64,000 bases of DNA from Escherichia coli (lineage in GTDB: Bacteria; Pseudomonadota; Gammaproteobacteria; Enterobacterales; Enterobacteriaceae): assembly GCF_003334785.1 (NCBI RefSeq), contig NZ_QOWV01000002.1. One strand, given 5' to 3'. Below, piece after piece: positions 6,284-59,777 of this stretch (its first letter is position 1; every line of letters starts with the position of its first letter). The notes beneath the pieces are model-generated. The model searched no databases, had not been told where the DNA came from, and worked only from the letters and a program-made list of their open reading frames with translations. A program made the translations under genes and the position numbers.

Positions 6284-6305
6284 TTTTGCGTTTGTCATAA
6301 ATCTC

Positions 6306-6339
6306 AGCCCGATGATAAATCCATCGGGCTATTTTTATT
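6306..6339 (+). terminator. Hairpin plus T-tract at the narP 3' end; candidate intrinsic terminator for nap-ccm read-through
   Basis: agcccgatg / catcgggct 9-bp stem, 7-nt loop, followed by atttttatt; the T-tract overlaps the narP stop codon on the opposite strand. Confidence 0.5.
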
Positions 6340-6982
6340 GTGCCCCGCGTTGTTGCAGGAACAGAATGGTGGCCGCCACGCGTGAGCGGACATTGAGTTT
6401 ACGCAGCAGATTGCGAATATGTACTTTTACTGTCTGCTCGGAAATATTCAACACCGAGGCAATCTGTTTATTTGACAGCCCCTGTGCCAGCTCGTGCAGA
6501 ACATCCAGCTCGCGCTCCGTCAGCACGCTGAAGGGATCTTCTTCCGCGCCAAACATTTCACGTTCACGTAAGTACTGATTGACGCGTTCGCTAAAGACTT
6601 TGCTGCCTTTCGCTCCGGCACGAATCGCTTCCAGCAATACTTCCGGGTCGCTGTCTTTCAACAGATAACCGTCTGCGCCTGCGTCTATCAGCGCAAAGAC
6701 ATCGCTGGAGGCATCGGATACGGTCAGGATAATAATTTGCGCGGTAACGCCATCCCTGCGCAAGGCATTGAGAGTATCCAGGCCACTCATACCTTTCATA
6801 TTGAGATCCAGCAAGATCACGTCGATATCCAGTCTATTCGCCAGATCGATAGCGCTCGCGCCGTCGCCCGCTTCGGCGACCACTTCAAAGCCAGGATCAA
6901 GCTCCAGTAACTGACGAACACCGCGTCGCATAAGTGGATGATCATCCACAATCATCACCTGAAAAGGCGTTGCTTCAGGCAT
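6335..6982 (-). CDS. narP: Nitrate/nitrite response regulator NarP
   Basis: 215 aa from the ATG at 6982 (MPEATPFQVMIVDDHPLMRRG...), receiver domain plus LuxR-type HTH; track ORF starts at an upstream alternative codon. Confidence 0.93.
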   Translation of the reverse strand: MPEATPFQVMIVDDHPLMRRGVRQLLELDPGFEVVAEAGDGASAIDLANRLDIDVILLDLNMKGMSGLDTLNALRRDGVTAQIIILTVSDASSDVFALIDAGADGYLLKDSDPEVLLEAIRAGAKGSKVFSERVNQYLREREMFGAEEDPFSVLTERELDVLHELAQGLSNKQIASVLNISEQTVKVHIRNLLRKLNVRSRVAATILFLQQRGAQ

Positions 6983-7301
6983 AGTAGTCTCCTGAGGTTT
7001 TATTAGAATCATTATGTTTGAGCGTAGCGTTGGTAACGCTACCAGGCGCGTGAATGTTACCCCATTTTATGTATGGACATGTAGTGAAAACTACAACCTT
7101 GTCGTTCGCTTTGGCATCATTTTCATTATAAAGACGGAATTTTGCATCAGCTTCTCATCAAGAAAAACAACTAAAAAATCAATCACAATACTTGTGCATT
7201 TCTTTAAACAGTTTTTAAAAACTGACTCCGGGTATGGAGCTATGGGTATTTTCTGTACCCAATGCTTTTAACAGCAATTAATTTCATAGGATGAAAGCTC
7301 A

Positions 7302-9893
7302 ATGCATCAATCTGGTTCTGTTTCTCTTTGTCGTTCCGCAATATCTGTTCTGGTGGCTACAGCGTTATATTCACCCATAGCATTGGCATCAACTGTTGAG
7401 TATGGTGAGACAGTTGATGGTGTTGTCCTGGAAAAAGATATCCAGCTGGTTTATGGGACCGCCAATAATACGAAAATCAATCCTGGCGGAGAACAGCATA
7501 TAAAAGAATTTGGTGTAAGTAATAATACTGAAATTAACGGAGGGTATCAGTACATTGAAATGAATGGCGCCGCAGAATACTCAGTATTAAATGACGGTTA
7601 TCAAATTGTTCAAATGGGTGGCGCGGCAAACCAGACTACGCTCAATAATGGTGTGCTACAGGTTTATGGCGCAGCGAATGATACCACGATTAAAGGCGGG
7701 CGCTTAATCGTTGAAAAAGATGGGGGGGCCGTCTTTGTCGCTATCGAAAAGGGAGGACTACTGGAGGTTAAAGAGGGGGGATTTGCATTTGCGGTAGATC
7801 AGAAAGCAGGCGGTGCTATTAAAACAACCACGCGGGCCATGGAGGTATTCGGAACAAACCGTCTCGGTCAGTTCGATATCAAGAATGGTATTGCTAATAA
7901 TATGTTGTTGGAAAACGGCGGAAGTTTGCGAGTTGAAGAAAATGACTTCGCTTATAATACCACTGTAGATAGTGGCGGCTTACTGGAGGTTATGGATGGC
8001 GGGACTGTAACTGGCGTTGATAAAAAAGCAGGCGGAAAATTAATTGTCTCAACGAATGCGCTGGAAGTGAGTGGTCCAAACAGTAAAGGCCAATTTAGTA
8101 TAAAAGATGGTGTGTCAAAAAATTATGAACTGGATGATGGTTCCGGGCTCATTGTTATGGAGGACACGCAGGCCATTGATACTATCCTTGATAAGCATGC
8201 CACTATGCAATCGCTGGGAAAGGATACTGGTACGAAAGTGCAGGCAAATGCGGTATATGATCTCGGTCGATCATATCAGAATGGAAGTATCACGTATTCC
8301 TCAAAAGCCATCTCTGAAAATATGGTTATCAACAATGGCCGCGCTAACGTCTGGGCTGGCACAATGGTTAACGTTTCAGTCAGAGGGAATGATGGCATTC
8401 TTGAGGTCATGAAGCCGCAAATAAATTATGCACCCGCAATGTTGGTGGGTAAGGTAGTGGTTTCTGAGGGCGCTTCTTTTAGAACGCATGGTGCCGTGGA
8501 TACCAGCAAAGCGGACGTTTCGCTCGAAAATAGCGTATGGACCATCATTGCCGATATCACTACGACGAACCAAAACACCCTCCTCAACTTAGCCAACCTT
8601 GCGATGTCTGACGCAAATGTGATTATGATGGATGAGCCAGTGACTCGTTCATCAGTGACGGCAAGTGCGGAAAATTTCATTACGTTGACCACCAATACCC
8701 TGTCGGGAAACGGCAATTTTTATATGCGTACCGATATGGCTAATCATCAGAGCGATCAGCTCAACGTCACCGGTCAGGCAACAGGTGATTTCAAAATATT
8801 CGTGACGGACACCGGTGCCAGCCCGGCAGCAGGAGATAGCCTTACACTGGTAACAACGGGCGGCGGTGATGCTGCATTTACGTTGGGCAATGCCGGAGGC
8901 GTTGTTGATATCGGTACGTATGAATATACCTTGCTGGATAATGGCAACCATAGCTGGAGTCTGGCAGAGAATCGCGCGCAAATTACCCCTTCAACCACTG
9001 ATGTGCTGAATATGGCGGCCGCACAACCGCTGGTATTTGATGCAGAACTGGACACCGTGCGTGAGCGTCTTGGTAGCGTAAAAGGCGTTAGTTACGATAC
9101 GGCGATGTGGAGTTCGGCAATTAACACCCGCAACAACGTGACCACTGATGCGGGAGCTGGTTTTGAGCAAACATTGACGGGCCTGACGCTCGGTATCGAT
9201 AGCCGTTTCTCCCGTGAAGAAAGCAGTACAATTCGCGGCTTGATCTTTGGTTACTCTCATTCTGATATTGGTTTTGATCGCGGCGGCAAAGGTAATATCG
9301 ATAGCTATACCCTGGGGGCTTATGCCGGTTGGGAGCATCAGAACGGTGCCTATGTTGATGGGGTGGTGAAAGTTGACCGTTTTGCCAACACCATCCATGG
9401 CAAGATGAGTAATGGGGCAACAGCGTTTGGCGATTACAATAGTAACGGCGCGGGTGCTCATGTTGAGAGCGGGTTCCGTTGGGTTGACGGATTGTGGAGT
9501 GTTAGACCCTATCTGGCCTTTACCGGCTTTACCACAGATGGTCAGGACTACACGTTATCAAACGGCATGCGCGCGGATGTGGGAAATACCCGGATATTAC
9601 GCGCTGAAGCGGGAACGGCGGTAAGCTATCACATGGACCTGCAAAACGGTACGACGCTGGAACCCTGGCTGAAAGCGGCCGTGCGTCAGGAATACGCCGA
9701 TTCTAACCAGGTGAAAGTTAATGACGATGGCAAATTTAATAATGATGTGGCTGGAACCAGTGGCGTTTATCAGGCTGGTATAAGGTCATCGTTTACCCCG
9801 ACGTTAAGCGGTCATTTGTCAGTCAGCTATGGCAATAGCGCAGGGGTAGAATCGCCGTGGAATACTCAGGCGGGTGTGGTCTGGACGTTCTGA
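7302..9893 (+). CDS. yejO: Autotransporter (type Va) outer membrane protein YejO, apparently intact
   Basis: 863 aa; N-terminal signal-like segment (SAISVLVATALYSPIALA), repetitive Gly/Asn-rich beta-helix-like passenger, C-terminal beta-barrel ending ...AGVVWTF (aromatic terminal residue). Confidence 0.9.
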   Translation: MHQSGSVSLCRSAISVLVATALYSPIALASTVEYGETVDGVVLEKDIQLVYGTANNTKINPGGEQHIKEFGVSNNTEINGGYQYIEMNGAAEYSVLNDGYQIVQMGGAANQTTLNNGVLQVYGAANDTTIKGGRLIVEKDGGAVFVAIEKGGLLEVKEGGFAFAVDQKAGGAIKTTTRAMEVFGTNRLGQFDIKNGIANNMLLENGGSLRVEENDFAYNTTVDSGGLLEVMDGGTVTGVDKKAGGKLIVSTNALEVSGPNSKGQFSIKDGVSKNYELDDGSGLIVMEDTQAIDTILDKHATMQSLGKDTGTKVQANAVYDLGRSYQNGSITYSSKAISENMVINNGRANVWAGTMVNVSVRGNDGILEVMKPQINYAPAMLVGKVVVSEGASFRTHGAVDTSKADVSLENSVWTIIADITTTNQNTLLNLANLAMSDANVIMMDEPVTRSSVTASAENFITLTTNTLSGNGNFYMRTDMANHQSDQLNVTGQATGDFKIFVTDTGASPAAGDSLTLVTTGGGDAAFTLGNAGGVVDIGTYEYTLLDNGNHSWSLAENRAQITPSTTDVLNMAAAQPLVFDAELDTVRERLGSVKGVSYDTAMWSSAINTRNNVTTDAGAGFEQTLTGLTLGIDSRFSREESSTIRGLIFGYSHSDIGFDRGGKGNIDSYTLGAYAGWEHQNGAYVDGVVKVDRFANTIHGKMSNGATAFGDYNSNGAGAHVESGFRWVDGLWSVRPYLAFTGFTTDGQDYTLSNGMRADVGNTRILRAEAGTAVSYHMDLQNGTTLEPWLKAAVRQEYADSNQVKVNDDGKFNNDVAGTSGVYQAGIRSSFTPTLSGHLSVSYGNSAGVESPWNTQAGVVWTF

Positions 9894-9952
9894 TAACAGA
9901 AAATAAACAGGCTGTGATGTGTCACGGTCTGTTTATCGAATTAATTGCAGAT

Positions 9953-9985
9953 ATAAAAAAACCAACCGTAAGGGTTGGTTTTTTC
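9953..9985. terminator. Bidirectional intrinsic terminator between yejO (+) and proL (-)
   Basis: aaccaacc / ggttggtt 8-bp stem with gtaag loop, flanked by an A-tract upstream and a T-tract downstream. Confidence 0.65.
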
Positions 9986-9995
9986 TTGGGATTTT

Positions 9996-10072
9996 TGGTC
10001 GGCACGAGAGGATTTGAACCTCCGACCCCCGACACCCCATGACGGTGCGCTACCAGGCTGCGCTACGTGCCG
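9996..10072 (-). tRNA. proL: tRNA-Pro (anticodon GGG)
   Basis: Reverse complement reads CGGCACGTAGCGCAGCCTGGTAGCGCACCGTCATGGGGTGTCGGGGGTCGGAGGTTCAAATCCTCTCGTGCCGACCA: cloverleaf with U33-GGG anticodon, T-loop GGTTCAAATCC and encoded CCA. Confidence 0.93.
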
Positions 10073-10146
10073 ACTCGTGGCTGCTAATACTACCGTTTTC
10101 CACACCGATTGCAAGTAAGATATTTCGCTAACTGATTTATAATTAA

Positions 10147-59598: not shown

Positions 59599-59777
59599 TG
59601 TAGGCCGGATAAGGCGTTCACGCCGCATCCGGCAACAGGAGCCAAATGCCGGATGCAACGCTGGCGCGTTTTATCCGGCCTACAATAAGCTCAACATACT
59701 GATTTGTATGGTTTTGTAGGCCGGATAAGGCGTTCAAGCCGCATCCGGCGACAGGAACCAAATGCCGGATGCGTCTC
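59599..59777. repeat. BIME cluster: three to four REP elements in two tandem units of about 115 bp, between mglC and preA
   Basis: gtaggccggataaggcgttcaCgccgcatccggcaac and gccggatgcaacgctggcgcgttttatccggcctaca, then a second copy gtaggccggataaggcgttcaAgccgcatccggcgac plus a partial gccggatgcgtctctgg. Confidence 0.8.

Follow-up and report, generated by a model that had tools for sequence, protein, structure and literature searches.

We analyzed a 64,000-nucleotide stretch of Escherichia coli DNA (contig NZ_QOWV01000002.1 of the NCBI RefSeq assembly GCF_003334785.1; hereafter the window) with a focus on the autotransporter gene yejO and the intergenic region separating it from narP. An open reading frame (ORF) on the + strand begins at the ATG at 7302, the first start codon past the upstream in-frame stop, and runs to the stop codon at 9891–9893, giving 863 codons plus stop. 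The protein encoded by 7302–9893 is identical to the RefSeq entry WP_021544686.1, "autotransporter YejO," annotated with the same start and end, and the DNA at window 6300–10200 is 100% identical to genomes in which yejO is annotated (FDAARGOS_1248 and LR-64-2). The protein is 98% identical to the representative (863 amino acids) of a 90%-identity cluster with 16,859 member sequences, while the nearest non-YejO cluster representatives share at most 44% identity with it. The gene order ccmH–narP–yejO–tRNA-Pro–yejM, the position of the YejO orthologous group, is present in the window and also around two divergent alleles of 92 and 75% identity. No insertion sequence (IS) was found in the locus, the 3.9-kb interval being colinear with many genomes at 99.9–100% identity, and alongside the common 863-residue allele the ORF shows no frameshift, premature stop or other inactivating change. 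An intact 863-codon yejO free of IS elements, proposed in a preliminary description of this DNA, was thus confirmed by the ORF, the RefSeq identity and the colinear genome alignments. The interval is very probably the wild-type, uninterrupted chromosomal yejO, encoding a type Va (classical) autotransporter that resembles the AIDA-I/Ag43 adhesins.

The architecture of the protein was studied using profile models, structure prediction and fold comparison. By sequence inspection alone, the N-terminus (MHQSGSVSLCRSAISVLVATALYSPIALA, followed by ST) resembles a signal peptide, with a basic n-region (R11), a hydrophobic core at residues 12–26 and ALA at 27–29. Pfam placed two strong AIDA repeats (PF16168) at residues 184–245 (7.7e-24) and 257–315 (1.5e-21), together with three weak ones, Pertactin (PF03212) at 431–555 (3.2e-45) and Autotransporter (PF03797) at 602–841 (8.8e-45). 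Among the NCBIfam models, TIGR01414 matched residues 456–863 over its full model length with 367.6 bits against a cut-off of 16, and the strand-loop-strand repeat TIGR04415 scored 65.3 bits against a cut-off of 30 over passenger residues of about 166–313; only such generic barrel and repeat models passed, with no YejO-specific NCBIfam model reaching its cut-off. The protein ends in ...GVVWTF, the terminal Phe providing an aromatic beta-signal.

An AlphaFold2 model, built from a 105-sequence alignment of diverse relatives, had a mean predicted local distance difference test score (pLDDT) of 85.2 and consisted of an all-beta passenger at residues 29–561, a helix at 563–592 immediately before the barrel, in the place of the linker helix, and a barrel at 600–862. 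Residues 1–27 were disordered in the model (pLDDT <50) and the first strand of the beta-helix started at residue 29. Sequence matches in the Protein Data Bank (PDB) comprised Antigen 43 (Ag43; 7koh, 1e-36), Vag8 (7akv), an AIDA-I-family adhesin, TibA, the BrkA barrel and pertactin (1dab). In Foldseek searches against the PDB, Ag43 came first for the passenger (7koh/7ko9, E about 1e-20), and the barrel matched BrkA (3qq2, template modeling score [TM] 0.90) as well as EspP, Hbp, AIDA-I and NalP. AIDA-type repeats forming a beta-helix, the mark of the self-associating autotransporters (SAATs), were thus recognized through PF16168, TIGR04415 and the Ag43 and TibA matches.

The passenger contains a tandem duplication. 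Comparing residues 166–239 with 240–313, we obtained a Smith–Waterman score of 131, against 36.7 ± 7.6 (maximum 72) for 300 shuffles, and the duplicated 74-residue units correspond to the two strong Pfam AIDA repeats. A BLASTP comparison of the protein with itself returned the diagonal only, and the duplication is demonstrated by the Smith–Waterman alignment and the shuffles instead. The preliminary description had read a signal-peptide-like N-terminus, a complete C-terminal beta-barrel and internal duplications typical of beta-helical adhesins from the letters of the DNA, and had called for structure prediction of the passenger. All of this held: the first agrees with our inspection and with the disordered N-terminus of the model; the barrel is covered by PF03797, the full-length TIGR01414 match and the terminal Phe; the duplication it quoted is real, comprising two units of 74 residues; and the likeness to AIDA/Ag43-type passengers recurs in Pfam, the PDB matches, the duplication test and Foldseek, with the predicted passenger all-beta and Ag43 its top fold match. 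Pfam, NCBIfam, the AlphaFold model and Foldseek agree in indicating that YejO is a classical type Va autotransporter with a signal peptide, a beta-helix passenger, a pertactin-type junction, an alpha-helical linker and a beta-barrel (Table 1).

Table 1. Features of the yejO locus, with positions counted from the first letter of the window
Feature	Position	Strand	Basis
narP, divergent nitrate/nitrite response regulator, 215 aa	6335–6982	-	ORF list and RefSeq annotation
narP–yejO intergenic region, 319 bp, AT-rich; should hold the yejO and narP promoters	6983–7301		GC content, alignment
Intact coding sequence of yejO (863 codons and stop)	7302–9893	+	Identity to WP_021544686.1
Predicted Sec signal peptide, residues 1–29, predicted cleavage after ALA	7302–7388	+	Sequence inspection, AlphaFold2
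TTAT, IS5 target in K-12 (codons 22–23), unoccupied in the window	7365–7368	+	Alignment to MG1655
Passenger, residues 30–561, predicted beta-helix with ~19-residue rungs	7389–8984	+	Pfam, PDB matches, AlphaFold2, Foldseek
Tandem internal duplication, 2 × 74 residues (166–239, 240–313)	7797–8240	+	Smith–Waterman, Pfam, TIGR04415
Pertactin-type C-terminal passenger domain, residues 431–555, at the junction/autochaperone position	8592–8966	+	PF03212, PDB matches
Alpha-helical linker, residues 563–592, predicted in the barrel pore	8988–9077	+	AlphaFold2; matches to pre-cleavage EspP and BrkA barrels
Outer-membrane beta-barrel translocator, residues 600–863, ending in ...VVWTF	9099–9890	+	PF03797, TIGR01414, Foldseek
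tRNA-Pro (GGG), 3' of yejO and followed by yejM	9996–10072	-	Rfam, RefSeq neighbors

From what is established for type Va autotransporters, we infer the likely route of secretion. The 29-residue signal peptide would direct Sec export to the periplasm, and the C-terminal domain (about 600–863) would be inserted in the outer membrane as a beta-barrel by the beta-barrel assembly machinery, with the alpha-helical linker at 563–592 filling the pore. The passenger at 30–561 would be threaded outward and fold on the surface as a beta-helix, nucleated by the pertactin-type junction at 431–555. The exposed AIDA-type rungs, the 74-residue duplication included, most likely mediate adhesion or cell–cell aggregation, a role suggested by the similarity to Ag43, AIDA-I and TibA.

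The K-12 reference differs from the window at this locus. An MG1655-derived genome matched the 3.9-kb query in two pieces with 1,199 bp extra between them, and its annotation lists narP, a 23-codon fragment, an IS5 transposase and then "yejO, missing N-terminus." In a base-by-base comparison, the IS5 of MG1655 (IS5K) was 1,195 bp long and located directly past codon 23, inside the region coding for the signal peptide, with the TTAT of window 7365–7368 duplicated on both flanks. Removal of IS5 and one TTAT in silico restores an intact ORF of 863 codons in K-12. Relative to the YejO of the K-12 reference (b2190), the window lacks the 1,195-bp element and differs by a single amino acid, S846G; being uninterrupted at 7365–7368, it does not belong to the K-12-type yejO::IS5K class. 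The IS5 of K-12 cuts the signal peptide off from the remainder of YejO and leaves the promoter untouched. The literature likewise describes K-12 yejO as a pseudogene in which IS5K lies near the start codon (PMC11005336), and places IS5 within yejO in direct orientation, with a putative PyejO upstream of it (PMC11677980). The duplicated TTAT agrees with the IS5 target consensus C(A/T)A(G/A) (CTAA/CTAG type; PMC11677980) at only three of four positions and is therefore a noncanonical IS5 target site.

Upstream of yejO, the GC content is 33–37% over 7000–7300 against about 52–54% in the adjoining genes. The annotated start of narP is at 6982 in every RefSeq annotation that we inspected, while the mechanically called narP ORF starts at an ATG at 7012, 30 nt further upstream, adding MILIKPQETT; the boundary of 7013 used earlier for the intergenic region derives from the end of this extended frame. 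The 319-bp intergenic region is identical at every position between the window and MG1655, and even the 75%-identity allele preserves blocks of it. As K-12 carries exactly the same intergenic region, a "native promoter" is no distinguishing mark of the window strain.

These comparisons allow the remaining claims of the preliminary description to be judged. It had described MG1655 as carrying an IS5 copy and a disrupted yejO, which is right in that the K-12 gene is a two-piece pseudogene, and had placed the copy at the narP–yejO junction, where it is not, lying in the coding sequence after codon 23. It had further proposed that the window comes from a strain with both yejO and its promoter intact; the gene is intact, and the promoter, being the same in K-12, does not set the strain apart. 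The 290-bp upstream region that it described is indeed AT-rich and, measured from the annotated narP start, is 319 bp long (6983–7301). The idea could have failed in either of two ways, through a K-12 reference without the IS5 or through a damaged ORF in the window, and alignment to the reference found neither to be the case. The origin of the window in a non-K-12 strain with an intact gene was borne out by its first 25 kb, which agree at ~100% identity with those of natural isolates, among them NCTC9100, ML35, LR-64-2 and FDAARGOS_1337.

A terminator-like hairpin, TGGGTA-TTTTC-TGTACCCA followed by ATGCTTTTAA, is located on the + strand at window 7243–7261, ~40 bp 5' of the yejO start and in the presumed leader. 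Most of the hairpin is kept in the 92% allele and part of it in the 75% allele; it may act as an attenuator or merely match by chance. In a search of the interval, Rfam reported nothing except the tRNA.

To place the window allele among its relatives, we searched 5,426 complete E. coli genomes, all of which matched the locus. The resulting state counts are based on probe matches and describe the presence and continuity of the DNA, such that pseudogenes caused by frameshift or nonsense changes are not separated among the ~3,900 genomes with colinear full-length DNA. With a 120-bp probe centered on the IS5 site, the site was uninterrupted in 5,050 of the 5,426 genomes, while the probe matched in two places in 358, the split pattern seen in K-12 and Stbl4. 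Most E. coli have an uninterrupted yejO, with K-12 as a lineage-specific exception. Intact 863-codon genes were found in BL21-AI and O157:H7, among others.

A 541-bp probe for the barrel-coding segment was present in 4,294 genomes and absent in 1,132 (20.9%). The barrel-less genomes carry deletion alleles that retain 6307–7773 (or to 7703) and 8778 (or 8858)–9234 and resume at 9864, having lost ~1.0–1.15 kb of the passenger and 629 bp of the barrel, and are annotated as frameshifted or partial pseudogenes. In ATCC 25922 and the uropathogenic E. coli (UPEC) strain 536, a generically named product of this barrel-deletion class stands in place of "yejO." Compared with such B2/UPEC-type alleles, the window retains the segments 7704/7774–8777/8857 and 9235–9863 that they have lost. 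In agreement with these results, commensal and diarrhoeagenic genomes have been described as containing YejO and UPEC as having a truncated form of it (Wells 2010, as cited in PMC3426408), and yejO has been reported as missing from sequence type 131 (ST131; PMC5654935).

The two deletion alleles share the barrel deletion of 9235–9863 exactly, with a 4-nt overlap at the junction, while their passenger deletions differ and are nested, comprising 7774–8777 (1-nt overlap) and 7704–8857 (6-nt overlap). Because the barrel deletion is shared and the passenger deletions are nested, the pattern suggests one ancestral loss that may have been followed by further decay through illegitimate rather than repeat-mediated recombination.

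Insertions affect the locus as well. Strain AW1.7 has an IS2 past yejO codon 72, and strain SCU-172 has an IS1 in the narP–yejO intergenic region and an IS4 between yejO and tRNA-Pro with the 863-codon ORF intact (locus L006, 908–1605 and 4613–5959). With the IS1, IS2 and IS5 cases, and the IS4, the AT-rich 5' end of the yejO locus looks like a recurrent IS target. On the other side of the gene, the 102-bp yejO–proL spacer and tRNA-Pro(GGG) (window 9894–10072) form an attachment site that is empty in the window and serves phages or islands in other strains. In strain Z1323CEC0016, a phage-like element with a prohead protease/capsid fusion, a single-stranded DNA-binding protein and a primase lies between yejO and the tRNA (locus L013, 9700–15699), and the gtrIC prophage remnant of Shigella flexneri 1c has tRNA-Pro and yejO as its boundaries (PMC4924310).

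Elsewhere, the window consists of ordinary core chromosome spanning ccmA to cirA. Rfam matches at the gathering level identified naRNA4 (CssrE, a nucleoid-associated RNA derived from repetitive extragenic palindromes) at 59603–59680 on the + strand with 88.3 bits, and, at 13788–13813 on the - strand, the leader of ribosomal protein L25 that precedes rplY, both expected for the region.

We studied the effect of selection using the ratio of nonsynonymous to synonymous substitution rates (dN/dS). Against O157:H7, SCU-172, the 92% allele and the 75% allele, the overall dN/dS of yejO was 0.21–0.30, with 0.07–0.17 for the linker and barrel and 0.20–0.42 for the passenger. The near-identical BL21 allele gave 0.15, based on very few substitutions. 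The flanking narP and yejM had dN/dS of 0.00–0.04. The 92 and 75% identity alleles are syntenic (ccmH–narP–yejO–yejM) and retain full-length ORFs at dS of up to about 0.8. With dN/dS of 0.15–0.30 persisting to dS of about 0.8, yejO has been maintained under purifying selection across deep divergence, and its exposed part evolves faster, as would be expected if the gene encodes a functional surface protein.

The dS of the 75% allele is itself raised. For yejO, it is 0.80 overall and 1.26 in residues 331–560, compared with 0.39 for narP and 0.59 for yejM (locus L010 3001–5589 against window 7302–9890), which hints at old allelic lineages or at recombination in the passenger.

Several observations weigh against reading yejO as a working adhesin gene. 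First, yejO has repeatedly undergone loss or disruption and is therefore dispensable in many lineages. Second, a consensus sigma-70 scan found no promoter on the + strand of the narP–yejO intergenic region, where an uncharacterized "putative PyejO" has been placed upstream of yejO in K-12 (PMC11677980), and an RNA sequencing (RNA-seq) compendium of K-12 contains almost no yejO signal, although these data are confounded by the IS5 between the promoter and the gene body. Third, the model is weaker over residues 160–270, with pLDDT of 43–71 by 10-residue block. Fourth, the scores against the NCBIfam equivalogs are low, 130.7 for Ag43 and 73.8 for AIDA-I, both against a cut-off of 1200; to judge by these scores, YejO resembles characterized adhesins but is an ortholog of none. 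Finally, as the literature search found no experiment on YejO function, surface display or self-association, the adhesin role is argued from homology only. Literature searches combining yejO with H-NS, autotransporter or adhesin likewise found no regulatory or functional study, and from the AT content we infer possible silencing by H-NS.

Part of this evidence could be accounted for by a gene that is intact but cryptic, kept effectively silent by transcriptional repression (nucleoid proteins binding the AT-rich promoter, for instance) and on its way to loss, with no phenotype. The low upstream GC content (33–37%) and the lack of a + strand consensus promoter fit this explanation, as do the near-zero RNA-seq signal in K-12, whose upstream region is identical, and the independent inactivations by IS5 in K-12, by IS2 in AW1.7 and by nested deletions in 20.9% of the genomes. 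The expression data of K-12 are confounded by the IS5, however, and silence in the laboratory is compatible with a functional adhesin that is expressed conditionally. Furthermore, dN/dS of 0.15–0.30 (0.07–0.17 in the barrel) at dS of up to about 0.8, and the full-length ORFs of the syntenic 92 and 75% alleles, are unexpected for a gene without a function. We therefore consider a silent, drifting yejO unlikely, though the strongest of the alternatives to a functional surface protein.

The recurrent independent destruction of yejO by IS5, IS2 and nested deletions, alongside continued purifying selection in the other lineages (dN/dS of 0.15–0.3), might also reflect lineage-specific selection against the surface protein, that is, pathoadaptive or antigen-avoidance loss, instead of neutral decay. 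We hold this only tentatively and think it rather doubtful. If true, intact YejO would be a functional, niche-specific colonization factor that is costly in extraintestinal lineages.

The passengers of autotransporters are functionally diverse and no function has been assigned to YejO by experiment, so the passenger could in principle be an enzyme or toxin, similar to the serine protease autotransporters of Enterobacteriaceae (SPATEs) or the esterase autotransporters. Pfam and NCBIfam found AIDA repeats, pertactin and the barrel only, with no protease, lipase or esterase domain, and the best structural matches of the passenger, by sequence or fold, were Ag43, TibA and pertactin and not the protease passengers of the Hbp or EspP type, making an enzymatic passenger very improbable.

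The notion that the window is a K-12 derivative with yejO restored by precise excision of IS5, for which one can point to the mere three substitutions from K-12 over 4.9 kb around the locus and to one case of precise IS5 excision mentioned in PMC11677980, is the least credible of all and was rejected, since those three single-nucleotide differences (S846G in yejO and two others in narP) set the window apart and it is matched better by natural isolates. The best 25 records for window 1–25000 are all non-K-12 with a displayed identity of 100.0% and at most a few base differences. Most of them were isolated from humans, animals, food or the environment (for example LR-64-2, FDAARGOS_1337, NCTC9100 and ML35), and such strains carry the exact protein WP_021544686.1.

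An uninterrupted, ordinary yejO thus remains the preferred interpretation of the window. The pseudogene of K-12 and the truncation in UPEC have each been published, and the window allele represents an already known, ordinary polymorphism. As K-12 is the exception at yejO, studies based on it are uninformative about YejO function, including those using the Keio ΔyejO mutant as a "wild-type-like" control. Most E. coli, BL21 and O157:H7 included, carry an intact AIDA/Ag43-like autotransporter, a reasonable if unsurprising target for work on adhesins or biofilms.

Among the characterized autotransporters, Ag43 (Flu/Cah; 4kh3, 7koh and 7ko9) shares the type Va layout, the AIDA-type rungs, the pertactin-like junction and the C-terminal barrel with YejO. 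It is the best match to the YejO passenger in both sequence and fold, but the identity in the structural alignment is only about 22–24%. The BafA C-terminal model of NCBIfam scored 203.7 against a cut-off of 700. With AIDA-I and TibA, the glycosylated autotransporters of diarrhoeagenic E. coli, YejO has the PF16168 repeats in common, and the TIGR04415 repeat is the target of O-heptosylation in these proteins; the AIDA-I barrel (4mee) also resembles the YejO barrel in fold. The YejO passenger is much shorter than theirs, however, and the gene is adjoined by narP and tRNA-Pro instead of a heptosyltransferase gene of the aah/tibC type. No glycosyltransferase gene is annotated within the annotated first 50 kb of the window, and heptosylation of YejO, if any, would depend on an enzyme encoded elsewhere. 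The Bordetella proteins pertactin, BrkA and Vag8 have the pertactin-type domain and the barrel in common with YejO, Vag8 aligning over 459–860 and the BrkA barrel reaching a TM of 0.90, whereas the N-terminal repeats of YejO are of the AIDA type and there is no sign of serum-resistance or RGD-type functions. The closest counterpart is the annotated YejO itself, with which the window shares a protein identical to WP_021544686.1, the neighbors narP, tRNA-Pro and yejM, and the length of 863 amino acids found in BL21 and O157:H7.

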